64,000 nt of DNA from Acidobacteriota bacterium (GTDB taxonomy: Bacteria > Acidobacteriota > UBA890 > WLXD01), in contig CAXWPH010000014.1 in the NCBI GenBank assembly GCA_963666055.2, positions 480,001-544,000 of the forward strand, in the 5' to 3' direction. Below the pieces are notes generated by a model that searched no databases, was not told the origin of the DNA, and was given only the letters and a program-made list of their open reading frames with translations. The position numbers and the translations under genes are program-made. Below, one piece after another: positions 43,939 through 64,000 of the stretch. How positions within the stretch are numbered: position 1 is the stretch's first letter; each line of letters opens with the position of its first letter.

Positions 43939-44190
43939 CGAGATTGTCTCCCGGGTAATTCGATTGTTGCTCGGGCACGAGTCTGCGTGGCGTTGGAGGC
44001 TTGCGCAAGGGGGGCGCGGCGCGCCGCGGAAAGGTCGTCGGCTACCGCACCGGGCGGCAGCCCGATATCCTTGTAAAAAGCAGCCTCAAGCGCCCGTCCG
44101 CCGAGGCCCCACCCTTTATATTCGAGCCGTACTTCATACGTCCCGGGCGATTTGGACACGCGTTTCTCATGATGGCTGGAGTTCTTCATT

Positions 44191-47100: not shown

Positions 47101-50100
47101 GACTGGCTTGCCGCGGAGCTCAGGACGGCGGTTGCGTCGGGGCGCGATGGCGAAACCTGGTCGGACCCGGCAAACCGCGCCACGCCGGCGACGCCCCGCT
47201 ACGGGCAGCGAGACGTATTGCTCGAGGAGCTCTCTGCGTGTGATCCGTCGTTGGCGGCACTGGCCGCCCAGCATCTGCTCGCCTGTGATCTGCTCGACGG
47301 TGTTGCGGCAGCCGATCCGACACTGATTGACAACCTGCGCGCCGGACGGCAGCTGGCGACTGTCGTATCGCAGGGAGCCATTTGCAACGAGCTGATCGTC
47401 TCGGGCAAGGCGGCGGAGGGTGTTGCCGCTGTGGCAGCCGAAGCGGGTGTCGAGCTTCACGGCGTAGCACCGTTGGTTGCTACGGCGTTGGCCGATTGGT
47501 TGCTCGTGGTGCGTGACAATCGCGGCTACCTAGTGCCGATCGATGACCCGGGAGTGAAGCTCGAGGACGTGGGTTGCATCGGGCTGGTCGGCGCCGCCGT
47601 GCGGCGGGTGATCTTCGACGGTTGCGTTGTACCGCCGGAACACCTCTTCGATGTTCCTTCGATCGACGAAAGGTCTGCCTTTACGGCGCCGGCCGTCGGC
47701 GAGCCGTTTGCTGATCTTCTGCGAATCGGCGTGCTCGATCACCTGGCAATCGTGCGGGGCGCGGGCACCTACTTGACGCAGCGTGCGCGTGAGCATGCCG
47801 CCACTCGGGTTCAGTTCCCCGATTCTTTCCAGGACGAGGCCGGCCGGGACACGATCGCCAAGTTCGGCGCCGTGAAGCGACTCATGGCCGAGATGGAAGC
47901 GCAGCGCATCCTGGTGGAGTCGCTCAGTATCATCGATCCGGGACCGACCGACGACCCGTGGATTGGTGCCGCGGTGCGCAAGGTCCTCGCCGCCGACGCC
48001 TTCGGGCCGAATCGAGGCTCGTTGGGCTACAACTGCGGCCAGGTGTTCGCTGGCACGGCATTTTCCGAAGACGACTGCATCGCCAAGTACTACCGCGACA
48101 GCAGTCCGTTCCGCTTCTTGCTCGCCCACGACGACGCGCTGCGTGTCGAGATCGGCCGCCGCCGACTTGCAGCAGTACGGCAGGGCAACTCTTTGGTCCC
48201 GCTGTCGCCGGGCGAGGCGGCGTGGCTCGGTGCCCTGGGTGACGAAGCTCCTTTGGCCGCCGCGGTGCCGCGCTGGGAGGCAGCCTGCGCCAAGATCGAC
48301 GGGTGGGCCGATAGCGTCGCGGCGGCCGACGAACCAATGGCCGAGCTCCTGTGCTTTCAAGCCGGCGGCGTGGTTGCGTCGGCGTTGGCTGTCAAGGTCT
48401 GTCTGTTGCGCACCGGTTGGCGTCTCGAGTCCGGTTTGCCTGCCCAGGCGACGCGCGCAGCGACCAACCTTCTCAACGACGAGTTCTGTGCCGCCGTTCC
48501 GGGGGTCATCGACGATGCTCAACTTCTTGCTGAAACTCTCGAAGTCGGTGACGAGACGATCATCCACGGCGATTTCGAGCCCGCCGCCGACATCGCCGAC
48601 GCGGAGCCCTATCGCGCCGTGCTCGAGACCGATCACGGTGCCGATTCCGGAGAATGGCTGGTCGGAGGTTTCGACGGCGAGCGACTCCGCTACGTGCCCG
48701 AGATCCTGTGGAACGACCCGGAGCTAGGCGCGTTTCGCGACAGGGTGGAGGCGGAGCAGCGACGGCGCTACGTCGAGCCACGCTTCGACGGGCTGACGTA
48801 CAACCGGTATCTCGAGAAGCTGCACATCGTGCCGCGCGATGATCTCGACTACCTGGTTGACGAAGGCTTCCTGCGCATGCCGATCCCGACGTCGCTCGGC
48901 GGTGAAGGGGTACTGAAGGCGCTCTACTACATCGTCTGCGAGATGACGGGTCGCTACGGCGACGCGGCGCTGTCGCTGGCCATAATGGCCAACACGAGTA
49001 TCGGCACGACGCCCATGCTCCTCGGTCTCAAACAGGACCTGCCGCGCGCCCGCGCCGAGCTCGAGAGGGTCAAGGGCGACCCGACGCTGCTCGGCGAGAT
49101 ACACGACGGCCTCGACAAGCTGATCGCCGGCATGGCGCGTCCCGATCTCGAGGCGCTGCAGCGTGACTACCTGGCGCTGATGGAGCTGGTCAAGGCGCGC
49201 ATCGTCAAGTCGAGCGTGCTCAAGTACATCGGCGGCGGCTTCCTGCGCGCTTTCTTCGCCGCCGGACAGGCCGGCGAGCAGCGTGACCTCGACAGCTTTG
49301 CCGACAACCTGCGGCAAGCCCGCGAGCGTCTCGACGAGATCCTCGAAGGTGTCGAGGACCGGCTCATCGAGTACCCGCGCCGCGAGCGGGCGCACGAGCT
49401 GTTCTTGAAGATGATCTCGGCCGGCTACATCTCGGCCTTCGCGCTCACCGAGCCGACTGCAGGATCCGACTCGGGCGGCGTGAAGACATCGGCGCGCCTT
49501 GATCGGCGGCGCGTCTATTGCGACGACGACGGCGTCCTGTACTTCTGGCTCGACGATAAGGCCGAAAGCGAACGGCGCAACCTCCTCGACGCCGACCGGG
49601 TTGGGTTCGACTTCGATCGCCACAAGATGCTCTATCGCTTCTCAGAAGACGCCGAAGCTGCGGAGATCAACCACGACGCCTTCGACTACGACAGCCGGGA
49701 GCTGCCGAGCAAGTGGCGCACCTATCGTCACGGTGATCGCGACGTTGCGTTCACCGACATCGCGCAGATTCGTGAGGATGAGGCCGGTGACCTCTGGTAC
49801 GAGTACTGGGAGCTCAACGGCGTCAAGATGTGGATCACCAACGGGCGCTTCGCCCATTGCTTCGCGCTGTACGCCACGACCGAGCCGGAGGGCGTTACCG
49901 GTTTCATGGTCGACCGCCACGCCGAGGGCATGGTGGTCGGCGCCGACGAAGAGAAGCTCGGCCAGCGTGCCTCGCCCACCAACGAGTTGTCGCTCACCGG
50001 AGTGCGCGTGCCGCGCGAGTGCATCATCGGTTTCCGCGGCCGCGGCCAGGTCAACGCCCTCGAAACGCTGAATACCGGGCGTACCGGCTTGGCGGTGACG

Positions 50101-52941
50101 GCGCGCTCCGGTATCCAGGAAATACTCGAGGACGCAGTGGCGTTCTTCAGCGAGACGCGACCCAGCGCGTACCCGAAGCAGGGAGCGCCGGCGACCGCGC
50201 TGCAGACCTACTGGATGGGACGCCTTACCGAGGAGCTCATCGGCACCGCCGCCGTTGCCAACGAGCTGATCGGCCTGTTCGACCATCCACTAACCAAGAA
50301 CGTGCGCATGGAGTCAGCGATCGGCAAGTACTACGGCAGCGAGGCGCTGCACGACGGCATCGAGTGGATGGAGCGATTGCGTGGGCTCGATGGCTTGACC
50401 CACCGCCATCGCATCGAGAAGACGCGCCGTGACGCGCGGGTGCTCAACATCTACGAAGGCACCAACGAAGTTCAGCGCTACCTGTTGTTGCGCGACCTGG
50501 CGCAGCGCGTGCTGCCGGCGTGGAAGGCGGCTCAGAAAGATAGCGACGGCGCGGAAGTAGACACGGCCGGCGCGCATCCCGATCTGCGCCGGCAGCTAGA
50601 GGACGTCAAGCAGCGCCTGATGTCACGGCTGCAGGACGCCGACGCGGCGTTCGGCCAACTCATCTGGTCGAACGTCAATCTACAGCCGTGCTTCTTTTGG
50701 CTGGCCGAGATTTCCGGCCTCATCAAGGTGATGGACGCGGTGCTGTATCGCCTCGAATGGCTGGCCGCCCACGACGTGGCCGCCGTGTACCGCGAGCGCC
50801 TCGAGCGCGCTTCGCGCCTGGCATTTCGCCGTTGCGGGGTGCGCATCGACACGCTCGAGCGTTTGTTCACTGCTGCCCACGCCTATCTGCAGGACGGGCG
50901 CTACCCGCCGGATGTGCAGCTCGGGTTCCTGGCTCTCGACGAGGCCGGCGTCATCGCCGAGGCGTGGGGGGTCATGCCCGCGTCGCGTCGCCCGCAGCCG
51001 GAACTACCGCCGCTGGCCGACGATGTGCGCATCGTCGTACTCATCAAGTCGGTGCCCTCGGTTGCCCCGCGGCCGCGGGTCGGCCATGAGTCGTTCGAGG
51101 AATCGCTGCACTCAATCGACCAGGTCGACGTCCGATCGCTGCAGATGGCGCTCGATCTCAAGCGCCGAGATCCGGCGCGGGTAACCGTGGCCGCTTATAC
51201 GCTGGCTGGGGCCACCGGCAACGAGGCACTCCGCCAGGCATTGGCGATGGGAGCCGACGAAGCGCAGATTCTGGTGGGTGGCGAGACGGTACCGGTTCAA
51301 GACCCCGCCCGGGTGGCGCGCATTGTCGGAGGTTGGCTGCAGGACAAGCCGGCCGACATCGTGTTCTGCGGCGCCGCCGCTTCGGACACCTCGCAAGGTA
51401 TCGTCGGCCCCGCACTCGCCGGTGCTCTGGGCCGTGAGTTTCTCGCCGGCGTTACGGAAGTGCGCTGGAGTCCGGCGCCGGAGCCGCTGTTGCACGTCGG
51501 CGCAAGCGGTTGGCAAGGTCACCACATCGATGTGCCGGTGCCCTGCGTCATCGCGACGGCGGCGCACGCCGAGCACGCCGAGGCCGAATACCGGGTCGGT
51601 GGTTTCGTGGCCGCGTTAGCGGCAGCAATCGGCAGGCTCGAGGCCCGCGATTCGGAAGTCGGTGCTTTGCGTGTTGCCCACGTGCCTCGTGCCATTGCCG
51701 GCGGCGGCACTACGGTTCAGATCGCCCGCACGCCGGAGGATGCCGCCGATGTGTTGTTGCGCACGTCCGGGCTGACCGATGCGGTGTCGAGTTCCGAGGC
51801 CGATTCCTACGCCGGCGATCCGGCCGGCTTCGGCCAGCAGCCGGAAGACCCGTCTCCTGTCTGCCTGTTCGTTTGCGCGCCTGTGGCCGCCACCGACATG
51901 GAATCGTCCACGCAGGCGTCCCTGGAATCGGCTGCTCGTCTGGCGGCCGGCGTCGACTTGCCGCTGGACGTGGTGTTGCCGGTGACGGGTCCCGAGGCTC
52001 TCGCTGCGGGAGTGGGGCAGGTGATTGCCGATGTCGGGCCACGGCGCATCTATGTGCTGGAGCAGGCCGACATCGATCGGCTCGGCTACCGAGGTCACAT
52101 CGAGTGGCTCGAGGAGTTCTGGGGCATGTACCGTGGCCAGCCCGAATGGCTGCTCGGGCCGGAATGGGCACGCACGCTGTTCGCCTACTTCGGCGGCCAG
52201 GGACCGCCCGCCGTAGAAAGGAGCTGGTCCTGGTTCGGTGTCGAGCGGGTGAGCAATGGTGGACCGGAGATCCGACTCGGCACATCCATTCTCGACGGTG
52301 CGGCTCGCGCCGTCGCGACGGTGCCGAAAACAGGCGGCTTGCGCATCGTCACGTTTGCCGGCGCCGCCGCAATCGATCTGCCGGACATCGCGAGCTCCGC
52401 TGATGCGACGCAAGTGTTTGCCTACCAACCGCGGCTCGACTACGACCTCGCGTCCGATCCGGCGGCGGCTCTGATGAGTCGCCTGGGCGGCGGAGAGCTG
52501 ACGCTGCAGGCGGCCGAATACATCGTCGATTTCGGCTATGGCGCCGGGGGTCGGGAGGGCCTCGCGGAACTCGCCGAGCCGCTCTTGAGCATCCTGGCAG
52601 ACGAGCTCGGGCTGCCCAACGCGATGATCGGCGCGACGCGCAAGGTCACGCAAGATCTCGAAGTGCTGCCCATGGATCGCCAGATCGGACAGACCGGTGT
52701 GCGTGTACACCCCAAGGTGCTGGTAGCGCTGGCAGTTTCAGGCGCCCCGCAACACGTCGACTGGATCGACGACGAGACTGTCATCCTCGCCTTCAACGTC
52801 GACCCCGACGCGCCCCTGATGAGGCTCAACGAGCAGCGCCCGAATCCGGTGGTTCATCCGATCGTGGGTGACGTTTGGGAAACCATCCCGCGGTTTATGG
52901 CCGCCCTGCGCGCGGGCGAGCGGGCGCAAGGATCGCGATGA
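44191..52941 (+). CDS. 2916-aa fusion: FixC-like flavoprotein / FixX ferredoxin / two acyl-CoA dehydrogenase domains / EtfB / EtfA
   Basis: GGGPAG; CPAKVY..NCVKCETC; QF..IAKFGAV..YYRD; FALTEP..GSD, KMWITNG, IYEGTNE; ALAMGAD, FCG..D..GIVG; RQIGQTG..SGAPQH. Confidence 0.92.
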   Translation: MEQNRFDVIVVGGGPAGITAATALGRAGFSVLVCEAAVYPGAENWSGAVYFAENIEAPEAFGRAAIESGPIERPLVERGFYSYNGHSMLGAALRDPKVFRSCYTVLRPVFDRYLAELAREHGVVLLCETTVQSLIRHQGRIIGVHTERGPAYADVVFLAEGDASHLVTQEGYERVGPDAGEGGSESGPHFLQGVKEVVSLSPEIIEERFGLPAGGGGAYEILLRNGTRHGRTVRLNMGGFIYTNRDSLSLGFVLPVDNLAENFDGDHNLLMEWFKGLPEIERWIDGGEVTSYGAKIIRGGGLREIPRLIDDGLAIGGAASGIGLDFPYPNFTGPATAMGLLFAAAVQKIAADNGGPGGGSGDCPFSAAALEQTYVRPLQRTHYYRNVERLADWPGYIERTRFFFDQQVDLANSVAFIVSRPDISAPRRWWEALRLERRLIVTKHFKSVLADLRENSGALGLGRAAREGFGIGTPVRWLFNTVSALLPSRRTSIGGDKSTGVAIATTPGGGEFRVTYRVLAGAEVPGRLPLVARWYWKRFGPAMGDAFADVYTNDDEPLDTKLPRALGRLIDQFSAWDAVLSVVSLVAGALTLLAQSSIEWFQYAVLKKDLSAFREQFVARLLDDNRRRIRLDDDAVEIRTSYEHKLGTIRYRVGQHSHIKVLWPDDLAARGELVDSPLWNVCPAKVYEVDRNPRGMPGVVVNFDNCVKCETCWRATPDVHWSRATQQRLIYETYTPTHAELRNYLLTRTEPVARLRRLPSYWEAYWSGSSDLSTSSEQAALLTGVEAELRRFSAALDGYSQALGDSPPALEQGERYYLEELLASATRRFEAARALWQTEALESLRAAADGAAAVWADAAERVEELARHAAAKRYFWSDVVGKQLREHHVEGLLVLLRREAAGVDQLAPQHGLPSEPCEAWSWIAGWPAVECRPLAFETHRKTIRDWCDAHVDSAVLNRLEEGLPISTELRDWLAAELRTAVASGRDGETWSDPANRATPATPRYGQRDVLLEELSACDPSLAALAAQHLLACDLLDGVAAADPTLIDNLRAGRQLATVVSQGAICNELIVSGKAAEGVAAVAAEAGVELHGVAPLVATALADWLLVVRDNRGYLVPIDDPGVKLEDVGCIGLVGAAVRRVIFDGCVVPPEHLFDVPSIDERSAFTAPAVGEPFADLLRIGVLDHLAIVRGAGTYLTQRAREHAATRVQFPDSFQDEAGRDTIAKFGAVKRLMAEMEAQRILVESLSIIDPGPTDDPWIGAAVRKVLAADAFGPNRGSLGYNCGQVFAGTAFSEDDCIAKYYRDSSPFRFLLAHDDALRVEIGRRRLAAVRQGNSLVPLSPGEAAWLGALGDEAPLAAAVPRWEAACAKIDGWADSVAAADEPMAELLCFQAGGVVASALAVKVCLLRTGWRLESGLPAQATRAATNLLNDEFCAAVPGVIDDAQLLAETLEVGDETIIHGDFEPAADIADAEPYRAVLETDHGADSGEWLVGGFDGERLRYVPEILWNDPELGAFRDRVEAEQRRRYVEPRFDGLTYNRYLEKLHIVPRDDLDYLVDEGFLRMPIPTSLGGEGVLKALYYIVCEMTGRYGDAALSLAIMANTSIGTTPMLLGLKQDLPRARAELERVKGDPTLLGEIHDGLDKLIAGMARPDLEALQRDYLALMELVKARIVKSSVLKYIGGGFLRAFFAAGQAGEQRDLDSFADNLRQARERLDEILEGVEDRLIEYPRRERAHELFLKMISAGYISAFALTEPTAGSDSGGVKTSARLDRRRVYCDDDGVLYFWLDDKAESERRNLLDADRVGFDFDRHKMLYRFSEDAEAAEINHDAFDYDSRELPSKWRTYRHGDRDVAFTDIAQIREDEAGDLWYEYWELNGVKMWITNGRFAHCFALYATTEPEGVTGFMVDRHAEGMVVGADEEKLGQRASPTNELSLTGVRVPRECIIGFRGRGQVNALETLNTGRTGLAVTARSGIQEILEDAVAFFSETRPSAYPKQGAPATALQTYWMGRLTEELIGTAAVANELIGLFDHPLTKNVRMESAIGKYYGSEALHDGIEWMERLRGLDGLTHRHRIEKTRRDARVLNIYEGTNEVQRYLLLRDLAQRVLPAWKAAQKDSDGAEVDTAGAHPDLRRQLEDVKQRLMSRLQDADAAFGQLIWSNVNLQPCFFWLAEISGLIKVMDAVLYRLEWLAAHDVAAVYRERLERASRLAFRRCGVRIDTLERLFTAAHAYLQDGRYPPDVQLGFLALDEAGVIAEAWGVMPASRRPQPELPPLADDVRIVVLIKSVPSVAPRPRVGHESFEESLHSIDQVDVRSLQMALDLKRRDPARVTVAAYTLAGATGNEALRQALAMGADEAQILVGGETVPVQDPARVARIVGGWLQDKPADIVFCGAAASDTSQGIVGPALAGALGREFLAGVTEVRWSPAPEPLLHVGASGWQGHHIDVPVPCVIATAAHAEHAEAEYRVGGFVAALAAAIGRLEARDSEVGALRVAHVPRAIAGGGTTVQIARTPEDAADVLLRTSGLTDAVSSSEADSYAGDPAGFGQQPEDPSPVCLFVCAPVAATDMESSTQASLESAARLAAGVDLPLDVVLPVTGPEALAAGVGQVIADVGPRRIYVLEQADIDRLGYRGHIEWLEEFWGMYRGQPEWLLGPEWARTLFAYFGGQGPPAVERSWSWFGVERVSNGGPEIRLGTSILDGAARAVATVPKTGGLRIVTFAGAAAIDLPDIASSADATQVFAYQPRLDYDLASDPAAALMSRLGGGELTLQAAEYIVDFGYGAGGREGLAELAEPLLSILADELGLPNAMIGATRKVTQDLEVLPMDRQIGQTGVRVHPKVLVALAVSGAPQHVDWIDDETVILAFNVDPDAPLMRLNEQRPNPVVHPIVGDVWETIPRFMAALRAGERAQGSR

Positions 52942-52954
52942 CTGCGTTGCGCTT

Positions 52955-53000
52955 GATTCGAGTGCTCGACGTACATTAAGTACGCCTGCGCGCTCGAATC
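52955..53000. repeat. Intergenic hairpin between convergent genes
   Basis: GATTCGAG..CGTAC-ATTAA-GTACG..CTCGAATC. Confidence 0.5.
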
Positions 53001-53091
53001 TGCGCGCGCCTTGTCCTCGCGAGCCTTGCGCCCGCTCGCCTCTACCGGCGCTTGGCTACGACCCGGCCGTGCCTGCTCGCTTCACGACCCT

Positions 53092-53301
53092 TTAGCGGCG
53101 CTTGGCTACCACCCATAGCGAGTTGTGCTCGCCGGTGTCGAAGTTCGCGCCCTTTGATTCGAGCTCCTCGACGGTGAGGTTGTAGGTGGCGCCGTCGGCG
53201 TAGGCGAGCAGCAGACGCCCGCACTCATCACAGGTGGCGATGTCGCGGTGCTTCGCCAGATTCTTCTCAGCTTCTTGCTCGCAGCAGTGCTTCAGGGGCA
53301 T
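53092..53301 (-). CDS. Small Cys-rich hypothetical protein
   Basis: HCC..CDECG; codon usage looks coding. Confidence 0.65.
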   Translation of the reverse strand: MPLKHCCEQEAEKNLAKHRDIATCDECGRLLLAYADGATYNLTVEELESKGANFDTGEHNSLWVVAKRR

Positions 53302-53402
53302 GTCGGGTGATGGCGCTTCCACCAGTCTGTGAAACGAGGGCTCGAACCATTGTAGTCTGTATCCAGAGCTGCGGTTTCCAGCTGACTAAGAGTCAATCTG
53401 TG

Positions 53403-53746
53403 ATGCGCAATCTCAAGGCAGCCACGGCGGTTTGCGGCGTCATCGGGGCGTTGGCGGTCGCAATTGTTACTCCGCTGGCCATCGCCGCGGCCAGTGGGCC
53501 ATCTTGCAGCGCGACCGGCTCGCCAGCCTGCGCCGCTATTACGACCAGAGCACCGTGCGCATCGGTGAGTCGATGCAGCTGGAGATCGGCGGCCGTACGC
53601 TCAACGTGCGACGTCTCCACATCAGTGGGCCGATTCGTACCGGTTACGTCAACGAGTTCGGCCACGTGGTTCGCCTCGATCTCGATCCCGACCCGTGGAC
53701 GCGGAACGACCGCCACATTCGGATGCTCTTTCCGTCGGAGTACTAG
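53403..53746 (+). pseudogene. Internally deleted paralog of the next gene
   Basis: Signal peptide in one frame; C-terminus LDPDPWTRNDRHIRMLFPSEY in another. Confidence 0.6.
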
Positions 53747-53786
53747 CCGGCCATGGTGCTGAAAAACTGCGTACGGCAGTAGCCTC

Positions 53787-54812
53787 ATGTTTCTCGCCCG
53801 CCCGACGCCGATCCTGACTCTCGTCATCTGGTCGCTGGTCACCGGTGGCGCGACGCCGCCGGCCGCGCCGGTGACCAAGGCGCAGTACAGCGAGGTGTTC
53901 GGGTATCAACTCGGGGAGGAGCGCCATTACATCCTCGAGCCCGACAAGGCGCTGCGCCCGGGGGAGCACGGCATGTGGAGCATTCGCTTCGCAGACGTCG
54001 CCGGTGAAGGCGAGGACCTGAGGTTCATCTTCAATCTGGAGCACGAGCGCAGCGAGCTGATTCGGGACATGTTCGGCGGCCTTTCCGGCCGCCTTCAGAC
54101 AATCCGCGTCGAGTCCGTCCTTACGCTCAACGCTTTCGGGTTCCCGCTGCGTGTGGTGATGAGCGAGCAGCACGAAGTCGCCGGCGAACGCCGCACCGAG
54201 AGCGACATGCGAACCACGATCTTCACGTTCGACGGCGAGCGCTACACCAAGGCCGTGCGCATCGAAGGCCGCGAGTGGCGCTTTCCGATCAGCATCGCCA
54301 AGAACAAGGATCTCAACCTCGAAAGCCGAACCGGTCTGTACACGTTTCTGCCCTCGGCGCTGCGCTGTATGGGCCAGCCGGCGATGATCGGCAGGCCGCG
54401 GCGCTGTGAAGAGGGCGACATCACGTTCGCCAACCCGGGGTTGTTGAGCATCGTGATTCCGGTTCTGCGGGAGGAGAAGGTCAACAAGCGCGAGTTCCTG
54501 TTCTTCAAGCCGGCGGGCGTGGGCACGATGCCGGCCGGGCTGATGGACATGAGCGGCTGGGTGCGACGCGAACGCGACACGCAGCGCAGCATCTCGCGCT
54601 ACTTCGACAAGATGACCATCGAGTTCGAAGCGTACGAAGAGGGCGTCGAGATGGGCGTGCGCACGGTGAGCGCGTGGCGAGTCGAAGCCAGCGGCTCGAT
54701 GCGCAAGTTCTGGGTCGACGCCGAAGACCGGGTCATCAAGGTCGAGCTCGACCCGCACCCGCGCACCAACCAGAAGCGCTGGATCCGCATGCTGTACCCT
54801 TCGGAGTACTGA
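53787..54812 (+). CDS. Secreted hypothetical protein
   Basis: Signal peptide, beta-rich, ends LDPHPRTNQKRWIRMLYPSEY. Confidence 0.8.
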   Translation: MFLARPTPILTLVIWSLVTGGATPPAAPVTKAQYSEVFGYQLGEERHYILEPDKALRPGEHGMWSIRFADVAGEGEDLRFIFNLEHERSELIRDMFGGLSGRLQTIRVESVLTLNAFGFPLRVVMSEQHEVAGERRTESDMRTTIFTFDGERYTKAVRIEGREWRFPISIAKNKDLNLESRTGLYTFLPSALRCMGQPAMIGRPRRCEEGDITFANPGLLSIVIPVLREEKVNKREFLFFKPAGVGTMPAGLMDMSGWVRRERDTQRSISRYFDKMTIEFEAYEEGVEMGVRTVSAWRVEASGSMRKFWVDAEDRVIKVELDPHPRTNQKRWIRMLYPSEY

Positions 54813-54887
54813 CGAGCCCGACCAAGCGCAATGCCCCAGAGGCGGGCTTCTCGGTGCCCGTAGCAGGAGAGCGTTGAGATGTGCGGG

Positions 54888-55892
54888 CTAGCGTTCGATC
54901 GGCCGGGCGCGGCGCGGGCCCTCTGATTGGCCGTTGAGCGTCCAGTCGTAGTCGATGAAGCGGACGCGTAGCGAGTCGCGATTCTCGCGGATCCAGACGG
55001 CCTCGTCGGCCGGGGCGTATTGCAACACCCAGTCCACGACGTCGTTCTTCTCGGCCTCGAAATCACCGCCGTACCAGTCGAAGTAGCTCGACAGGTACAG
55101 GATGTTCTCTTCTCGATCGATCTGCAGGGCGCGCGGGCTGCTCAAGAACTCGAGCGATAGCTCTGTCATCAGCGGGTCGAGGTCCTCGGCGACATAGGGC
55201 CGGCGCAATAGCCGTGGGCAGCCGAAAGCGCCGCACACCAGCGTCCAGTGGAGCCGAGCGTCGGGAAAATCAGCGCGCAGGATGTCGTGCTCGATGTTGT
55301 CGAGCGTGCGGTCGACACCGCCGACGCGGTTCTCCTGCTTGAAGAAACCGGCGACCAGGCCGAACAGCCGATCCAGATCGCGAACGCTGTCGAGCGGGTA
55401 ACGCTCGACCACCTGCCACACGACGACCGCGTTGTAGGCGTTCATCCAGAACGCCATCTTCTCGTTGTCGCTCGCCAGCCTGTCGGGGTCGACGTTGCCG
55501 ATGGCCTCGATGAACGTTTGCAGGTCGGCGCGCCCGGGGCCGGTGAGCCCCTCGTAGTCGACCAAACCCTCACCGTCGACGTAGTCCTCGAGCACACGCG
55601 CCCACGGGTCGTAAAGCGGGTTGTCGGTGCCGATCTCTGCCCAGGTCTGGCGGGAGAGTTGTGCCTCGGCGCCGGCGCTCTCATCCTCACTCGGGGTCAT
55701 CTGCGCGCCCGCCGCGTCCGCCGTGGGCTTTTCGCCGGCCGCAGCAGTGGCGGAACCCGCGTTCGGTGTCGAGGCGTCGGCCCTTTGTGCGGCGGGGGGA
55801 GCGGGAGTGTCCCCTTGGCATGCAGCCGCCACAAGAATCAGGCCCGGCACCAGCACTGCAAGCGCGGCGATCGAAAGTCGTCGTCGGAACAT
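54888..55892 (-). CDS. DUF547-domain lipoprotein
   Basis: Lipobox AAAC, AFWMNAYNA, LDNIEH, DARLHW.LVCGAFGCP, YDWTLN. Confidence 0.92.
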   Translation of the reverse strand: MFRRRLSIAALAVLVPGLILVAAACQGDTPAPPAAQRADASTPNAGSATAAAGEKPTADAAGAQMTPSEDESAGAEAQLSRQTWAEIGTDNPLYDPWARVLEDYVDGEGLVDYEGLTGPGRADLQTFIEAIGNVDPDRLASDNEKMAFWMNAYNAVVVWQVVERYPLDSVRDLDRLFGLVAGFFKQENRVGGVDRTLDNIEHDILRADFPDARLHWTLVCGAFGCPRLLRRPYVAEDLDPLMTELSLEFLSSPRALQIDREENILYLSSYFDWYGGDFEAEKNDVVDWVLQYAPADEAVWIRENRDSLRVRFIDYDWTLNGQSEGPRRARPIER

Positions 55893-55974
55893 CGCGGAGT
55901 CCTTAATTCGTGGGGTGCAGGCGGTGGCCTGCGGAGATCCTACAGGCTAGTTGGCGCCGCGAGGAGTTTCGGTT

Positions 55975-56211
55975 TCAGTCGATTCCGAGTCGCTCGCCCA
56001 GCCAATCAGCGTCGAAGCCGACGATCACCTCACCGTCGACAACTACGGTCGGGGTGGCGGCCGGCCCGCCGGTGACGGCGCGTAGCTCACCCATCGGATC
56101 GTCGAAATCTTCGATGTGGATCTCCTCGAATGCGACGTCGTGCCGGCGAAGGAACTCCTTCGCTTGCTCGCACGGCATTCAGTAACGGCTCGTGTAAACC
56201 TGGATATCCAT
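55975..56211 (-). CDS. Glutaredoxin/NrdH-like selenoprotein (UMPC)
   Basis: MDIQVYTSRY-TGA-MPCEQAKEFL..TP..GFD; TGA at 56179-56181; hairpin downstream. Confidence 0.85.
56140..56173 (-). promoter_or_regulatory. Bacterial SECIS-like hairpin
   Basis: GTGC..GCGAAGG-AGTT-CCTTCGC..GCAC; loop about 23 nt after the UGA. Confidence 0.65.
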
Positions 56212-56339
56212 TGAAACGAGTATCAGCCCAATTGTGTGGAGGGGCAACGTGTGGACACAGAGACCCTTCGAGTCTGCGGCGGCGACGCGCTAAGATTCGC
56301 TTCGCCAACGCTCGCCGCTACCGCAGACAAGGAAGTGCG

Positions 56340-57083
56340 ATGTTTTTCCGCCAATACTTGGACCAAGACCCGGTGGTGGCCGTGTCATATTTGTTCGGCT
56401 GCCCGACGCAGGAAATCGGCGCCGTCGTGGATCCCATCGGGGACATCGAGCGCTACCTGAAGGAGTCGGAGGCGGGGAACGTGCCCATCCGCTACGTGAT
56501 CGAAACGCACATGCACGCCGATCACATCTCGAGCGGGCGCGAGCTCGCAAAGGCGGTCGGAGCGGAGTATGTGCTCTTCGCCGGCACCGAGGCCAGCTAT
56601 TCGTTCCGCGGCGTGGAAGACGGTGAGGTCTTGGACATCGGCAACACGCAGGCCGAGGTTCTCCACACCCCGGGGCATACGCCAGAGCACATTTCCCTGG
56701 TCGTGACAGATCACAGCAGAGGCGACGAGCCGTGGTTCGTGCTCACCGGCCACACGCTCATGGTGGGCGACATGGGACGAACGGAGCTCGCGACATCGGC
56801 CGAAGAAGGGGCCGAGGCTCTCTTCGAGAGCGCCACGCGGCTGCGTGGCCTGCCGGACCATCTGGAGGTGATGCCGGGGGCCTTCTCCGGCTCCGTTTGT
56901 GGGCGCGGACTCAGTGGGAGGCCGAGCTCGACGATCGGTTTCGAGCGCCGCCACAACCGTGCGTTCTCTCTGGAGAATCAAGAGGAGTTCATCCGCCTGA
57001 TGCTCGCCGAGATCCCGGCTCGGCCGCTCCAGGCCGAGCGGATCCGCGCCACGAACCTCGGACTCGATTCCGCTACCGCCTAG
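56340..57083 (+). CDS. MBL-fold hydrolase, persulfide dioxygenase-like
   Basis: SYLFGC, ETHMHADHISS, TPGHTPEH, STIGFE. Confidence 0.88.
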   Translation: MFFRQYLDQDPVVAVSYLFGCPTQEIGAVVDPIGDIERYLKESEAGNVPIRYVIETHMHADHISSGRELAKAVGAEYVLFAGTEASYSFRGVEDGEVLDIGNTQAEVLHTPGHTPEHISLVVTDHSRGDEPWFVLTGHTLMVGDMGRTELATSAEEGAEALFESATRLRGLPDHLEVMPGAFSGSVCGRGLSGRPSSTIGFERRHNRAFSLENQEEFIRLMLAEIPARPLQAERIRATNLGLDSATA

Positions 57084-57183
57084 TGGGTGAGGGGGCCGGA
57101 GCGGATTGTCAGCTACTCCTTGACGCTTGCGGTGCTCTGCGCCTAGCCTGACGTACAAGAATGGCAGCGTTCGACGATAGCCT

Positions 57184-58578
57184 TTGCCGGCAGGAGACCT
57201 GACTAGGGGAAACAATTCCGCAGGCACGATTCATCAACTTCTACGGTCGGGGGCGCTCGTGCTAGCGGTCCTTGCGCTGCTGGCTTTCGAGGGCGCAGCG
57301 CTCGCGGCGCAGCAGTCGCATGAGCCGGCAGCGGGTGGCCCGGCCGCCGTCACGTTCACCCGGGACGTTGCGCCGATCCTGCAGGAGAACTGCCAGATCT
57401 GCCATCGGCCGGGCTCGGTCGGGCCGATGTCGCTGCTCACCTATCGACAGGTCAGGCCCTACGCACGAACCATCAAGGACAAAGTGGCGGCGCAGGAAAT
57501 GCCTCCGTATCACCTCGATACGGGTGTCGGGATCCAGGCGATCAAGAATGACTGGAGGTTGAGCGAGCAGGAGATCGCGACCATCGTCGCTTGGGTCGAT
57601 ACGGGAGCCGCGGAGGGCGACCCGGCGGACATGCCAGCCGCGGTGGAATGGCCGGACTTCAGAAAATGGCAGCTCGAAGACCGGTTGGGCAAGCCGGATC
57701 ACGTGATCAAGTCGAAGCCCTTTATGGTGCCGGCCGAGGGGGGCGACTTGTGGTGGCGTCCGCGGGTGGAGACGGGGCTCACCGAGGATCGACTGATTCG
57801 GGCCTTTGAAACCCGGCCCTCCTTCCCCGCCGGCCGTCAAGCGGTGCACCACGCCATCCCTCGACTGTTGACGCAAAACGACGAAGGCGAGTGGGTCCGT
57901 ACCGGGAGCCTTTCGGAATATGCCATGGGCAAGATCGGGGAGATCCTCCCGGCCGACGCCGCCCGTCTGCTGCCGGCGAACGCGATGATCGAATGGGACG
58001 CCCACTACTACCCGATGGGCTATGTCGTTGAGGACGATCAGCTCGAGCTTGGCCTCTGGTTCTATCCCGACGGCTACGAGGCGGATTTCATGCAGAATCT
58101 GAACCTTTATCCGCTGCAGGGTGACATCGCCCTGGCGCCGGGTGGGACCGCGATGACCCAGGGCTTCCACCGGTGGAATCATCCGGTTCGCCTCGATAGC
58201 TTCCAGCCGCACGGGCATGTGCACCTCCATGCGATGTCCATGGAAGCGATTTATCCCGATGGTTCCCGGGAGCTCCTCAGTATGGTGAGCAACTTCGACG
58301 CGAGATGGCACCACAGCTACATCTATGAGGACGATACGGCTCCTATGTTGCCGACGGGCACTGTCCTGGTTCTCACCGCGTGGTACGACAACACGGAGGC
58401 CAACCCACTGACTCCCGATGCGGAAGTGTGGTACGCGCGAGGCAGCCGTACGACGGACGAGATGTCACACGCCTGGCTCGCCATAACCCACCTCGACGAA
58501 GACGGCTACGAGCGACTGGTTACCGAGAGGGAACGGAAGAAAGAAGCGGCCGCCCAAGACAGCGACGGGAGAAACTGA
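57184..58578 (+). CDS. Cytochrome c + copper monooxygenase-like domain protein (start uncertain)
   Basis: DVAPILQENCQICH, MPP, VHH, HGH, DEM. Confidence 0.82.
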   Translation: MPAGDLTRGNNSAGTIHQLLRSGALVLAVLALLAFEGAALAAQQSHEPAAGGPAAVTFTRDVAPILQENCQICHRPGSVGPMSLLTYRQVRPYARTIKDKVAAQEMPPYHLDTGVGIQAIKNDWRLSEQEIATIVAWVDTGAAEGDPADMPAAVEWPDFRKWQLEDRLGKPDHVIKSKPFMVPAEGGDLWWRPRVETGLTEDRLIRAFETRPSFPAGRQAVHHAIPRLLTQNDEGEWVRTGSLSEYAMGKIGEILPADAARLLPANAMIEWDAHYYPMGYVVEDDQLELGLWFYPDGYEADFMQNLNLYPLQGDIALAPGGTAMTQGFHRWNHPVRLDSFQPHGHVHLHAMSMEAIYPDGSRELLSMVSNFDARWHHSYIYEDDTAPMLPTGTVLVLTAWYDNTEANPLTPDAEVWYARGSRTTDEMSHAWLAITHLDEDGYERLVTERERKKEAAAQDSDGRN

Positions 58579-58592
58579 CAAGGAAACAGACG

Positions 58593-59033
58593 ATGAAGAG
58601 TCGCATGCTCTTGGGCAGTCTCGTCTTTGCGCTTTCGGCGCTGAGCGTGGCACTCCTCGAGGCCCAGCAGGTGCAGAGGCTTCCCCTGGCGCCGCGACCA
58701 CCCAGCGGCGAGCCGGTAGCGCCGTTTTTCGAAGGCTGGTATGCGAACCCGGACGGCACATACACCTTCTCGTTCGGTTACTTCAATTTGAACACAGAGG
58801 AGACGCTCGATATTCCCCTTGGGGAGGACAACTTCATTGAACCAGCCGAGTTCGATGGGAACCAGCCAACGTACTTCCCCGTCGATCCACGTCGAGACCG
58901 GGGTATCTTCACGGTGACTGTGCCGGCGTCTTTTGCAGATGGAGAGCAACGGGTTGTCTGGACCATCCGTAGTAACGGCGTGACCTATTCGGTTCCGATT
59001 GTGACTTTGGGATATAATTCCCTTTGTCAATGA
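58593..59033 (+). CDS. Secreted hypothetical protein, probably C-terminally truncated
   Basis: Signal peptide, PFFEGWYANPDGT..FGYFN; abrupt AT-rich end overlapping the next gene. Confidence 0.6.
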   Translation: MKSRMLLGSLVFALSALSVALLEAQQVQRLPLAPRPPSGEPVAPFFEGWYANPDGTYTFSFGYFNLNTEETLDIPLGEDNFIEPAEFDGNQPTYFPVDPRRDRGIFTVTVPASFADGEQRVVWTIRSNGVTYSVPIVTLGYNSLCQ

Positions 59034-60628
59034 CTCGCGTGCCGTCCGGAAGGAGGTCGTTCTTGAAGCTCCGTATAGCCATTCTCGTGATCCTCGGTGT
59101 GGTGGTGGCCGCAGGTGCAGCGGCGAACGCCCAGTTCGAGAGTGTGGGGGTTATCGACTTCCCCACCTCCGCGACGGGGGAAGTGCAACAGCACTTCCTG
59201 CGCGGCGTCTCGATCTTGCACAGCTTCGGCTGGAAGCAGGCGATCGGGCAGTTCCAAGCAGCGCAAGAGCTGGACCCGAACTTCGCGATGGCCTACTGGG
59301 GCGAGACGCTCTGCTACAACCATCCGCTGATGGGCGAGGCGGACGTGGAATCGCCGCGGGCGGTGCTGGCGCGGCTAGCGCCGACGCGTGCCGAGCGCCT
59401 CGCCAAGGCCCCAACCGATCGCGAGAAGGGTCTGCTGAACGCGGTCGAGATTCTCTGGGGCGATGGCGACTGGCGCGATCGGCGCGTCGGTTACATGGAG
59501 GCGATGGGCGAGCTCCGTGAGCAGTACCCGGACGACGACGAGATCGCGACGTTTTATGCCGTGTCGATGCTGAGTGCGGCGCGGGCGCGCGGTGACCAGA
59601 GTCTCAGGTTGGAGGTGAGAGCAGGCACGATCGCGCTCGATGTATTCAACAGAAACCGAAAGCACCCCGGCGCGGCGCACTACACGATCCACTCGTTCGA
59701 TGACCCGATCCACGCGCCGCTCGCGCTGCCGGCCGCGCTGGCGTTCGCAGAGATCGCACCGTTGGTCTCCCATGCTCGTCACATGCCGACCCACATCTTC
59801 ATCCAACACGGCATGTGGAATTACGTGGGCGATCACAACCAGTCGGCATACGAAGCCGCGAGAGAGCTATGGATGCCGGGTGACAGCGTCTCGGCCACGG
59901 TCCATGCCCTCGACTGGGGCCAGTACGGCGATCTACAGCGTGGCGACTACGCCAAGGCGAGCGAGTGGATCGACCGCTTGACAATGGTGAACGAAGAGGC
60001 CGCCGGCGCCGGCCGCGCCGCGCGCAGTCTTCCCCTCCTCAAAGCCCGCTACATCGTCGAAACCGAAGAATGGAAAACGGCGCCGATCACCGAAGAGTCC
60101 TCGGCCCCCGAGCTCTTGGCAACCGGACTGAGCGCGGTAAGAACGGCCGACCTCGTCATCGCCGAGAAGGCGGCGGCGGCGCTGAAGAAGCTCGTGGAGT
60201 CCGGGGGTGGTGCCGGTGGCGGCGCGCCGCCGACGCGCATCATGTACCGGGAAGTCATGGCTTCCATCCACGCCGCGAAGGGCGAGGCCGAACAGGCGAT
60301 CGAGCTGATGGACGAAGCCGTCGAGATCATGCGCCCGATGCGCGCCCCGAACGGCGCAGCGAATCCCGTGAAGCCGGCGTACGAGCTCTACGGCGAGATC
60401 CTGCTCGAGCTCGACCGGCCGGAAGAGGCGATAGAGAAACTCGAGATGTCCCTGCTGCGGATGCCCAACCGGCCGCGATCGCTGCTGGGTCTCGCCCGCG
60501 CCTATGTACGCACGGGTGACCGCAAACGCGCCGCCGAGCAGTACCGGAAACTGACCGAGGTCTGGGAGGGTCGTGACGCGTTCCCGGGCTTGCAGGAGGC
60601 AAAACGATTCCTGCACGAGATCGCGTAA
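59030..60628 (+). CDS. Secreted TPR protein
   Basis: FLRGV..LHSF, LDPNFAMAYWG, HPGAAHY.IH, HARHMPTHIF. Confidence 0.88.
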   Translation: MTRVPSGRRSFLKLRIAILVILGVVVAAGAAANAQFESVGVIDFPTSATGEVQQHFLRGVSILHSFGWKQAIGQFQAAQELDPNFAMAYWGETLCYNHPLMGEADVESPRAVLARLAPTRAERLAKAPTDREKGLLNAVEILWGDGDWRDRRVGYMEAMGELREQYPDDDEIATFYAVSMLSAARARGDQSLRLEVRAGTIALDVFNRNRKHPGAAHYTIHSFDDPIHAPLALPAALAFAEIAPLVSHARHMPTHIFIQHGMWNYVGDHNQSAYEAARELWMPGDSVSATVHALDWGQYGDLQRGDYAKASEWIDRLTMVNEEAAGAGRAARSLPLLKARYIVETEEWKTAPITEESSAPELLATGLSAVRTADLVIAEKAAAALKKLVESGGGAGGGAPPTRIMYREVMASIHAAKGEAEQAIELMDEAVEIMRPMRAPNGAANPVKPAYELYGEILLELDRPEEAIEKLEMSLLRMPNRPRSLLGLARAYVRTGDRKRAAEQYRKLTEVWEGRDAFPGLQEAKRFLHEIA

Positions 60629-60644
60629 TCAAAGGAGATCGACG

Positions 60645-61808
60645 ATGGCGAACAAGATGACGCGCCGAGAGGTGGTCGGAGGAGGCGCAGTGATCGCCGG
60701 GGCGGCGACGTTCGGCGCCCCGGAATGGGCGCTTGCGTTGTTGGCCCAGGAGGAAACCCTCGTCCCGTTCACGGACATGCCCGACGAGTACAACACGAAT
60801 CCCTCCCCGATCGTTCGATTCGTCGACATCCGCAATATCAACGACTTTTTCACGCCGGCGGACGAGTTCTTCACGATCCAGCACTACGGCCAGCCGGAGG
60901 TCAACGCTTCGAGCCACCAGCTCGAGATCAGCGGGCTCGTTTCGCGTCCTCAGAAGGTCTCAATGGCCGATATTCGGCGCCGACCGCGAATCGAATTGGC
61001 CTGCGCCTACGAGTGCTCGGGCAACAGCGGGCGCCGCTTCCACGGCTTGGTCAGCAACGGCCTGTGGGGCGGCACCAGCCTGAAGGCGCTGTTGGAGGAC
61101 ATCGGCCTGGAGCCCCCCGGACGGGAGGTCGTTTTCTTCGGTGCCGACCGCGCCGAGGAGACGATCACGATCCGCGGCAGGAGCTGGGATGTGGAGCAGC
61201 AATTCGCCCGCAGCCTGTCGCTCGAAGACGCCCTGAGCGATGACACGATGCTCGCCTACGAGCTCAACGGCGAGCCGCTGACGGTCAACCAAGGGGCGCC
61301 GTTGCGGCTCATCGTCCCCGGTTGGTACGGCGTCGCGCAGGTGAAGTGGTTGGAGCAGATCCACGTGCAGAGAGACCGGTTCATGGGCAAGTTCATGGCC
61401 AGGGAGTACGTGACTCTGCGTGACGAAGCGGTCGGGGACAATTTCAAGGCCACCGAGACTTCAATCACCCGCATCAAGCTCAAGTCGGTCATCTCTCGTG
61501 TGACGCGCGCCCCGGCCCATCACACGATCCACGGCTTCGCACTCACCGACGGCACGCCGCTCGACAGGATTGAAGTGCAAATCGACGACGGGCTGTGGAA
61601 CCGTGCCACTCTCGATGAGCGCAACACGCGGTATTCGTGGCAGCTCTTTACCTACCGGTGGGAAGGAGCGACCTCTGGGGAGCACACCATGACCTCCCGC
61701 GCGATCGACACCGACGGCAGGGTCCAGCCAGCACAAACCGATCTCGAGGCAAAGAAAACGACGTGGGAAAATAACGGTCAGTTTCCGCGCCGCGTGATGA
61801 TTTCCTAG
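60645..61808 (+). CDS. Sulfite oxidase-family molybdoenzyme (Tat-exported)
   Basis: TRRE signal, ECSGN, GAPLRLIVPGWYG..VKW. Confidence 0.92.
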   Translation: MANKMTRREVVGGGAVIAGAATFGAPEWALALLAQEETLVPFTDMPDEYNTNPSPIVRFVDIRNINDFFTPADEFFTIQHYGQPEVNASSHQLEISGLVSRPQKVSMADIRRRPRIELACAYECSGNSGRRFHGLVSNGLWGGTSLKALLEDIGLEPPGREVVFFGADRAEETITIRGRSWDVEQQFARSLSLEDALSDDTMLAYELNGEPLTVNQGAPLRLIVPGWYGVAQVKWLEQIHVQRDRFMGKFMAREYVTLRDEAVGDNFKATETSITRIKLKSVISRVTRAPAHHTIHGFALTDGTPLDRIEVQIDDGLWNRATLDERNTRYSWQLFTYRWEGATSGEHTMTSRAIDTDGRVQPAQTDLEAKKTTWENNGQFPRRVMIS

Positions 61809-61835
61809 CCCGGCGGAAGACCAAGACAAAGAAAT

Positions 61836-61910
61836 TGGCTGGGACGCAGGGATTCGAACCCCGATTCTACGGTCCAGAGCCGTATGTCCTGCCTATTGGA
61901 CGACGTCCCA
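61836..61910 (-). tRNA. tRNA-Gln(CTG)
   Basis: TGGGACG..TACGG-CTCTGGA-CCGTA..GGTTCGAATCC..CGTCCCAGCCA. Confidence 0.95.
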
Positions 61911-61962
61911 GCCGGCAAACGGAAGTCTAGGCCGCCAAAAGCACGGTCGCAATCACACGGAA

Positions 61963-64000
61963 ATGCGCCTTCGTGTGGCGCCGACAATCGATTTTCGCCA
62001 TCATCTGGGCGTGCGCACCCCGAAAGTACCATTCGATACCGGCACCCCGCGTCTCGAGCTGTGCCTGCTGTACGTCTTGTTCGTCGCCGCCGGGCTATTG
62101 CAGGCTGAAGGCGCCGCGGTGCAGGCCCGCCCGGGCGAGGTGGCCGGTCGCGTCGTGGACTTCGACGGCACACCGCTTCCCGGGCTCGCCGTGCGGCTGG
62201 AAGGGCCGTTTCCACAAAACACCACACGCGAGCTGGTTGCCGACGCCAACGCCCGCTTCGTGTTTCGCGACACGCCGCCGGGACGCTACCGACTGGCGAT
62301 CGAGCTCACCGGTGTGGACGCCGGCAGCGATCTCGACGTCATCGTGACGGCAGGAACGCGCGTCGAAACAACGCTGGTGCTGAACCTGCGGGGTACAGAT
62401 ATCAACGTCATCGTGCAGGCTCGGGCGCTGCGCGTTGAAGACGCCGATCTCGTCGACCCGGAGTCGACCGCAGGGCGGCGCATCGTACCAGGAACGACGA
62501 TCAACTGGCTGCCCTTGCCGGCGGAGCAGGCCCTAGAGGTGCTCCCGCTGATGCCCACGGTGATCCGCTCCGACAGCGGCCAACTAGCGATCGACGGCAC
62601 GTTGGTGACCGATTCGGTGATGCTCTTCAACGGCATCGACCTGATGGATCCCTACTCGGGTGAGTACCGGGTTCGCCTGCCGCTCGAGTCCATCGATCGC
62701 GTCGACCTGTATACCGGTGTGGTGCCAGCACAATACGGCGACACGGTGGGCGCCGTCGTCGATATCAGTACGTTGCCCGGCGCCGAGAGCTGGGGGTGGG
62801 GTGTTGCCAGTTTCGTTCCGAGGCCGCGGTTTCGGGACGGCACAATACAGGGCATCGGCAATGCATCTCCCCGCCTGTGGGTTTCCGGTCCGATCAAGCC
62901 GGGCGAAACGTACATGGCCATTTCCGCCGAGTATCACTTCGATCGCATCGACGTGCAGGACGTGCCGGGCGATCCGGCGCAAGATCACGTCAAGGTAGAG
63001 GGGTGGGACGCCACGGCGCAGGTGGATTGGCGACCCAACGACCAGCACAGCTTCATGGTTTCGGGCCTGGCGTTTCCGCAGCACGACAAGTTCGTCGGCC
63101 TCGACGGGCTTACACCACCGGAGGCGACCTTCAACGTCGAGCGCGATGCCGAGGCGCTGTTCGCCAAGCACACGTATCGAGGCGACCGTAACCGGTCGCT
63201 CGAGACCATGATCCAGTACAACCGCATCGGCATTCGCTCGGAGCCGCAGGGAGCGGCGCCGTACGAAGTCCTGACCGACGGGTTCGGCGGCAACCAGTTT
63301 CACCGTGAGGACCGGCAGACGACCCACACACAGATTCAGGTGAACTACTCGCGACGGCCGGAGCGGTGGCGGCGAAAGGTCGCACCTGGTCCAGATCGGC
63401 GCCGACTTTCATCGTCTCCACCTGAGCGGCCAGTTTGCCAACGATACGATTCTGGTGCGGGGCGTGGATGGCCGACTGCTGCAGAGGGTCGATTTCACCG
63501 ACTCGCCTGACCTCTCGTACAGCAAGTACGAGTGGGCCGGTTACTTCCAAGACCGCTGGACCCACAGCGACAGATTCTGGTGGGATATCGGAGTGCGTCT
63601 TTCGGGGGACTCGTTTACCGATACGGTGGTTCGCATCGGGCCGCGGATCGGCGTCGCATGGGATCCCGTGGGCGACCGGCGCACGCTGCTGAAGGCCGGC
63701 GCCGGGATCATGTATCGACGGGTTTACCTGGGGAAGATTCTCTGGGAAGATCTGCCGGTTCGCCTGGAGACGACGTTCGCAGAAGACGGCAGCGCAACCT
63801 TGGTTCCCCTCGTAGCTGCGCGCGACGAGAAGCTCTCGGCGCCCCGCACGCTCTTGTTCACCGGCGACTTCAGCCATCGGCTCGAGTCGGGCTGGCTTTT
63901 TCGCACCAAGCTCTCGCATCGCAGTGGCAGCGACAACATCATTGCCGAACGCGTCGAGCCACCCGGTGTCGCCCTCGAAGACGACGATCCATTGCCGTTC
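61963..64000 (+). CDS. TonB-dependent receptor with carboxypeptidase-regulatory N-domain; partial, +1 frameshift near 63360
   Basis: GRVVD..G.PLPG, plug domain; shifted frame continues AGYFQDRW..GPRIGVAWD..LLKAGAG to the edge. Confidence 0.85.

Follow-up and report, generated by a model that had tools for sequence, protein, structure and literature searches.

Within a 64,000-nucleotide stretch of an Acidobacteriota genome (the window), we observe a small glutaredoxin-fold gene whose in-frame UGA very likely specifies selenocysteine (Sec), because it falls at the catalytic Cys of related sequences and is followed by a conserved hairpin. With high confidence, we propose a Sec redoxin in which hairpin-aided decoding of the UGA yields a U-M-P-C motif that would reduce cytoplasmic protein disulfides or persulfides; re-reduction would more probably come from thioredoxin reductase (TrxR) than from glutathione. 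The full coding sequence (positions 55975..56211, minus strand) opens with an ATG at 56211-56209, reads MDIQVYTSRY-UGA-MPCEQ...LGID, and closes with a TGA stop at 55977-55975, giving a 78-amino-acid glutaredoxin/NrdH-like protein according to Pfam, NCBIfam, and AlphaFold. The in-frame TGA, the inferred Sec codon, is codon 11 (56179..56181, minus strand) and occupies the first position of the CxxC motif. The likely resolving cysteine, Cys14 (TGC, 56170..56172, minus strand), is invariant in 21/21 homologs from the order. A preliminary description of this DNA had proposed a hidden selenoprotein opened by this upstream ATG, with the UGA at the first Cys of the motif and a gene that standard callers would truncate, and each of these points is upheld. 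The plain open reading frame list does begin the gene at MPCEQ (55975..56178), as had been remarked, and database copies P0002, P0003, P0004-P0006, and P0010 likewise begin after the UGA. No clear Shine-Dalgarno sequence precedes the ATG in the window, and the homolog in genome G012, from another family, has GAGGTG at that place. A scan near the redoxin found no promoter and, in the gap before the DUF547 gene that follows it, nothing resembling a terminator.

Read with U at the UGA, residues 3-63 of the redoxin match the Pfam Glutaredoxin model (PF00462) over positions 1-60 of 60 (E 1.3e-12; 48.1 bits versus a gathering cut-off of 22.9), with U11 and C14 as the first and fourth motif positions. 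An AlphaFold model of the Cys form, built from a 21-row alignment with C for U, shows a thioredoxin fold (pLDDT 96.9) whose strand beta1 comprises residues 3-7, that is, before the UGA. Y6 and S8 are conserved in the alignment of order homologs, and the protein carries a TGG-P-x-x-T-P segment.

A profile search of 26 genomes of the order returned 21 strong redoxin matches (E ≤ 6.4e-33) in 20 of the 26, with 38-91% protein identity; L043 and L048, from outside the order, are excluded from these counts. All 21 carry UGA at the same codon, one TGA each, and 19/21 show the motif U-x-P-C. Alignment with Cys-containing homologs, which the preliminary description had suggested as a check, pairs the UGA with Cys in full-length relatives. 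The terminal stops are TAG or TAA in 10 of the 21 and TGA in 11, and because they vary, UGA is not recoded genome-wide. Should the UGA be a true stop, the product would be a 67-amino-acid MPCEQ monothiol redoxin without beta1, or the gene a decaying pseudogene. An ATG directly after the UGA, which gene callers use, exists in the window, G012, and G024 (3/21), whereas 18/21 homologs have none there, the ten upstream codons encode a conserved beta1, the UGA is kept in every homolog while terminal stops change, and the hairpin is under constraint, so that we regard this reading as very improbable. Read-through of the terminal TGA as a second Sec was also rejected, as neither that stop nor the sequence beyond it is conserved. 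The outlying UGA homolog L043 (genome G034) has an extra in-frame TAG right after its hairpin and looks like a broken gene or a sequence error.

It is hardly credible that a TGC or TGT was turned into TGA by faulty sequencing or assembly, or that UGA stands for Trp or Gly throughout the genome. This segment of the assembly does show signs of mixed origin; against this, contigs from 4/4 runs (X1, X3, X4, and X11) contain no differing letter at 56179-56181, X1 possibly being the source run and the others coming from three other studies. A TGC or TGT at this codon, named in the preliminary description as grounds for refutation, was thus not seen in any of them. In addition, 19 further genomes of the order carry the same codon, and TGA ends 1414 well-scoring genes of the genome holding the window (G000) as well as 11/21 of the homologs themselves.

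Downstream of the UGA lies a SECIS-like upper stem-loop, GCGAAGG-AGUU-CCUUCGC (56146..56163, minus strand; +16 to +33 after the UGA). Its 5' arm GCGAAGG (56163-56157) begins 16 nt after the UGA, the loop AGUU (56156-56153) occupies +23 to +26, and the 3' arm CCUUCGC is at 56152-56146. Stem and G-containing loop are as first described, and the distance of about 23 nt given at that time applies to the loop and not to the start of the stem. Published rules for bacterial SECIS elements give 16-37 nt to the loop, a loop of 3-9 nt, and a stem of 4-16 bp (PMC13188914, Fig. 2 legend), as well as a G at loop position 1 or 2 and a minimum free energy ≤ -7.5 (PMC13188914). The redoxin hairpin agrees with all of them, with 22 nt, a 4-nt loop with G at its second position, 7 bp, and -10.4 kcal/mol, and folding z scores are -2.2 to -3.2 in four segments around it. 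By itself the hairpin is only modest evidence, as a hairpin satisfying the rules also occurs at 136/1414 ordinary TGA-ending genes of the genome (approximately 10%) and one at least as stable at 44/1414. It is raised above chance because it is conserved among homologs.

Two hairpin registers, one base apart, are observed among the 21 order homologs. In the first (7 bp, loop AGUU; nine sequences including the window), 63/63 cells are paired, compared with 49-57% in slid controls, C-G changes to U-A in three sequences, and 6/500 shuffles score as high. In the second (8 bp, loop GUU; 12 sequences), pairing extends to 95/96 cells (slid controls, 39-77%), A-U changes to G-C in three sequences, and the shuffle counts are 0/500 and 3/500. 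Codon choice within the stem is unusual: the Leu codon is CTT in 18/21 homologs versus 5.8% across the genome, and the in-stem Phe is TTT in 12/21, whereas a control Phe outside the stem is TTC in 19/21. The covariation amounts to one compensating pair in each register, either of which probably arose in a single event, and since the homologs are kin, both it and the codon counts overstate independence. Read from these sequence comparisons, the hairpin is under selection, and the AKEFL[RS] helix appears to accommodate a SECIS element in either of two registers that differ by one base.

In bacteria, SelB binds such a hairpin and brings Sec-tRNA to the UGA (PMC13188914); here, SelB and the hairpin would place Sec at codon 11. 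A check for the Sec machinery, also proposed at the outset, gave a positive result: the genome encodes SelA (E 5e-135), SelB and SelD over their cut-offs (SelD in its Cys form, within a long frame), and two tRNA-Sec with a TCA anticodon. The two tRNA genes are near-identical (contigs C6:7932-8029 and C13:66090-66187), with one acceptor-stem mismatch in the C6 copy. Across the order, SelA is found in 24/26 genomes and the SelB wing domain in 22/26. A scripted search returned 135 UGA read-through candidates in the genome, from which 18 were picked by hand; 18/18 match known families; their hairpin loops lie 16-24 nt past the UGA, which by eye falls at a redox-type motif. Their families include FdhA, ArsM, SelW-like, PrdB-like, AhpD, DsrE, OsmC, deiodinase-like, Prx/TlpA-like, DUF3179, rhodanese, and MBL-rhodanese proteins, and the genome is likely Sec-rich, with at least 18 other probable selenoproteins.

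Several observations on these candidates stand apart from the redoxin. Loci L079-L095, spread over several contigs, add at least 17 likely selenoproteins from known families; among them, the FdhA frame (L086) stops at 372 amino acids against a 1009-position model, perhaps through a frameshift. Locus L096 (C14:448222-449058) shows two adjacent UGA frames among the scripted candidates. ARAGORN also calls a tRNA-Pyl (CTA) at C5:65608-65685 (L098), which looks like a degenerate ordinary tRNA because of its 8-nt anticodon loop and an adjoining tRNA-like piece.

The redoxin also extends beyond the order. In a phylum sample of 401 genomes, its profile matched 28, and 15 redoxin-like loci outside the order divide into eight with TGA at the codon and seven with Cys. 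A metagenome DNA pattern search recovered at least 120 stretches with the same codon-and-hairpin pattern, and 75 of the 80 loci retrieved match the redoxin profile at E < 1e-6. Strand beta1 is visible by eye in those with upstream sequence, the search pattern having specified nothing upstream of the TGA. Stems of at least 6 bp are present in 63/75 loci, a count that is not independent support because the pattern already specified the UGA together with a large part of the stem. Some UxxC proteins from metagenomes share this hairpin and have open frames of 135-241 amino acids after the UGA, corresponding to a redoxin plus an additional C-terminal part (L169, L178, L184, L193, L212, L220, L228, L231, L242, and L245), and three further loci (L199, L225, and L240) are ArsC/Spx-like by eye.

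By sequence, the redoxin is assigned to the Sec-glutaredoxin class (PF00462, UxxC), a catalogued and experimentally verified family (PMC13188914, Table 1). Its kind is thus already known, and it is an additional member of the Sec-glutaredoxins. Its best sequence match is cGrx1 of Clostridium oremlandii (7C10; E 6.4e-17, approximately 40% identity, TM 0.83), likewise a stand-alone glutaredoxin fold of about 80 amino acids whose motif begins with Sec (7C10/7C12). The two differ in motif (U-M-P-C here, U-P-x-C in cGrx1), in the TGG-P-x-x-T-P segment of the redoxin, and in setting, the neighbors here being DUF547 and metallo-beta-lactamase (MBL)-fold genes in a host in which gshB was not found. 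Together with cGrx1, Bacillus cereus BC3987 gives the best folds for the redoxin model (TM 0.80-0.85, approximately 40% identity), and BC3987 (3ZIJ), NrdH-like, and YruB-like redoxins are top fold matches at TM 0.81-0.85; unlike the redoxin, these are Cys proteins. The redoxin shares with BC3987-type redoxins a Pro before the second motif Cys and a Thr four residues before the first, its Thr7 standing four residues before U11 and matching Thr8 of BC3987 (PMC3720550).

None of the narrower Cys-redoxin models scored reaches its cut-off. The best NCBIfam score is that of YruB-like TIGR02196 (59.8 of 88.55), followed by the NrdH model TIGR02194 (41.2 of 85.75) and GRX_bact TIGR02181 (39.8 of 90), so that the YruB- and NrdH-like models score higher than the last. 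Identity as an NrdH-redoxin was rejected on its score and for lack of C-[VIM]-Q-C and of membership in an nrdHIEF operon, nrdIEF being absent from the annotated neighbors. The classical C-P-[YFW]-C glutaredoxin class (motifs in PMC3720550) does not apply either, given U-M-P-C and the low TIGR02181 score. The earlier designation as a UxxC glutaredoxin therefore stands at the level of PF00462 and needs narrowing below it, since the redoxin looks closer to the NrdH/BC3987/cGrx1 type than to classical glutathione-dependent glutaredoxins.

The UXX-star models (NF041212, NF041211, NF041114, and NF047338) also describe small glutaredoxin folds, and NF041212 matches redoxin residues 3-67. UXX-star proteins carry Sec near the C terminus, before the stop. 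The redoxin instead ends LGID, its terminal stop is not conserved (TGA/TAG/TAA), and it falls under all cut-offs (50.8 of 66; 42.4 of 100) with the last model positions unmatched. For UXX-star family 2, the motif given is GxGU (PMC13188914, Table 1). In hairpins after the terminal TGA, by eye, neither of the first two loop nucleotides is a G. UXX-star membership was rejected on the scores and the varying terminal stop, and NF041212 is not exclusive because the redoxin homolog L031 reaches 66 of 66.

The last 20 kb of the window (44000-63900) are 86-97% identical to G012 and approximately 70-78% identical to genus-mates, and contig C15 of the same genome carries the block a second time, in a genus-like version that includes a UGA redoxin. 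This second redoxin (L052; C15:1012958-1013194, minus strand) has U-A-P-C and the 8-bp register and is then followed by DUF547. The regions compared were C14 at approximately 520-584 kb versus C15 at approximately 995-1016 kb and 2075-2087 kb, and duplicated tRNA genes occur elsewhere. These similarities suggest either a large transfer or a chimeric assembly. A 58-protein tree (81 columns; order's clade 86/92) is poorly resolved and was used only to place the two copies. In G012, selA and tRNA-Sec are present and selB was not found (genome 95% complete), which bears on the redoxin because a G012-like organism is a possible source of the segment; selB is present in G024, a genus-mate of G012. 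The segment also contains a 2916-amino-acid fusion (44191-52941, plus strand) joining an FAD oxidoreductase, acyl-CoA dehydrogenase domains, and ETF beta/alpha in one frame, with homologs across the order, and a 69-amino-acid open reading frame (53092-53301, minus strand) with CC and CxxC motifs, without a Pfam match and conserved in eight compared loci.

Divergent from the redoxin is an MBL-fold, persulfide dioxygenase-like gene (56340..57083, plus strand) in a Cys form, with TGT at 56898-56900 within GSVCG. Such a gene is present in 8/9 loci of the 7-bp register and 0/12 of the 8-bp register, and in 0/45 metagenome redoxin loci with at least 1 kb upstream. The Cys form is seen in the window and G012, and six relatives encode a longer MBL-rhodanese protein with an in-frame UGA. 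Elsewhere in the window's genome, L097 (C7:331118-332524) encodes an MBL domain with HxHxDH, a long loop with U-G in place of C-G (GHVAGST-U-GR), and two rhodanese domains, the predicted layout of the persulfide dioxygenase-rhodanese fusion CstB of Staphylococcus aureus; the window's own neighbor, by contrast, is a Cys form without rhodanese domains. L097 matches 3TP9 and 3R2U over its own full length, its UGA falls on the Cys of the 3R2U loop PGHGAGSPCG, and the loop spacing fits the catalytic C201-G202 loop of CstB (PMC12934615). In CstB, Cys201 sits in a catalytic loop that mimics glutathione, is oxidized at the iron, and shuttles sulfonate; L097 would replace it with Sec, a residue that the paper on that enzyme does not mention (PMC12934615).

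We observe the TGA in 11/11 strong order matches of the L097 family and in G316 outside the order, whereas the G123 match has its TGA elsewhere and Cys in the loop. Other Sec-CstB-like loci are L060:5432-6814, L062, L064, L067, L074, L033, L286, L290, L292, L293, and L296. Among the best 120 of 459 database hits to the N-terminal piece of L097, 120/120 end at ...GST or ...GPT, and Sec-CstB-like entries are cut at 184-186 amino acids, just before the UGA site; source labels on the family's hits include Acidobacteriota and Chloroflexota. Full-length homologs have Cys at the UGA site in 112/114 cases. In position and loop (AGGU) the family's hairpin is as expected, but on its own it is weak (z +0.34), with 66/70 cells paired and no compensatory change in 10 sequences; the Sec case for L097 therefore rests on the pairing of UGA with Cys. 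We hold with strong confidence that this family is a real selenoprotein. It was not found among the 119 families of Table 1 in PMC13188914, in the main texts of BSepDB and deep-Sep, in NCBIfam 20.0, or in the literature searched, and we think it probable that it is not yet in print.

On the other side, 82 nt downstream of the redoxin, lies a DUF547 gene (54888..55892, minus strand; Pfam E 3.8e-18). Its product has a hydrophobic N terminus with a lipobox-like AAAC motif by eye, is likely exported judging from these features, and contains a C-x4-C-P motif that is invariant in alignment A4. DUF547 follows the redoxin on the same strand in 18/21 order loci (16 directly, two after one gene), and both DUF547 genes of the window's genome come after a UGA redoxin. 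It is found in 0/43 metagenome redoxin loci with at least 1.2 kb downstream, in 0/15 phylum loci outside the order (±1.5 kb), and in 0/51 longer glutaredoxin proteins scanned. Within the order, DUF547 occurs without a redoxin nearby in G013, G014, G018, G021, and G025, the G025 locus ending at a contig edge. A universal glutaredoxin-DUF547 system was rejected, as the link is confined to the order and five order genomes have no nearby redoxin, and common descent accounts for it no less well than a joint function does. Plant class IV glutaredoxins also bring the two domains together, as a Grx-DEP-DUF547 fusion (PMC13621322), unlike the arrangement here, with separate genes, no DEP domain, and a likely export signal on DUF547.

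In cGrx1, the first motif residue attacks the substrate and the Cys resolves the mixed bond (PMC7642778). By analogy, Sec11 of the redoxin would attack a disulfide or persulfide in the substrate, leaving Cys14 to resolve the mixed bond. We chose TrxR as reductant because no glutathione synthetase or BshC was found, BC3987 and cGrx1 give the best folds, and Thr7 is present. In the window's genome, gshB has no match other than a weak partial ATP-grasp hit, and across the order it exceeds the cut-off in 0/26 genomes, with one hit below it. On balance we lean slightly toward re-reduction by the only TrxR detected (L162; C6:91374-92618), a fusion whose N-terminal Grx3 domain is over its cut-off. 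A low-molecular-weight thiol may also provide a route to the redoxin, the TrxR having a Grx3 domain and the thiol search having covered gshB and BshC.

A Sec protein that acts in the classical glutathione-dependent manner, as a cGrx1-like glutaredoxin that serves MsrA and has no link to its neighbors, appears unlikely to us; this account shares the Sec claim, and our judgment of it covers reductant and client only. The closest solved relative, cGrx1, is reduced by glutathione and is a proposed reductant of MsrA (PMC7642778), and msrA is present in the window's genome, without a stop. Homologs outside the order lack both neighbors in the metagenome loci counted above, and G013 has MBL and DUF547 with no redoxin between them. 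Against it stand the order-wide gshB result and a GRX_bact score below those of the YruB- and NrdH-like models. Under the TrxR-reduced reading that we prefer, the main client could tentatively be the neighboring persulfide dioxygenase-like enzyme or another sulfur-handling protein, an assignment that we consider doubtful. Functional coupling of the redoxin to the Sec-CstB-like enzyme is conceivable, with the balance somewhat against it. Less probable still is a selenium-armed sulfur module of which the redoxin would be one half, the divergent Sec-CstB enzyme, of a widespread family, the other, and the exported DUF547 protein a third part. In such a module, the Sec-redoxin would reset or feed the Sec-CstB enzyme, and the latter would shuttle Se-bound sulfonate or handle selenium species.

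Standard gene callers remove the catalytic residue of these proteins and thereby hide an all-Sec redoxin group from protein searches. If the Sec-CstB family is confirmed, an iron dioxygenase would join the list of selenoproteins, and a natural Sec-CstB would offer a direct test of how Cys201 chemistry tolerates selenium.
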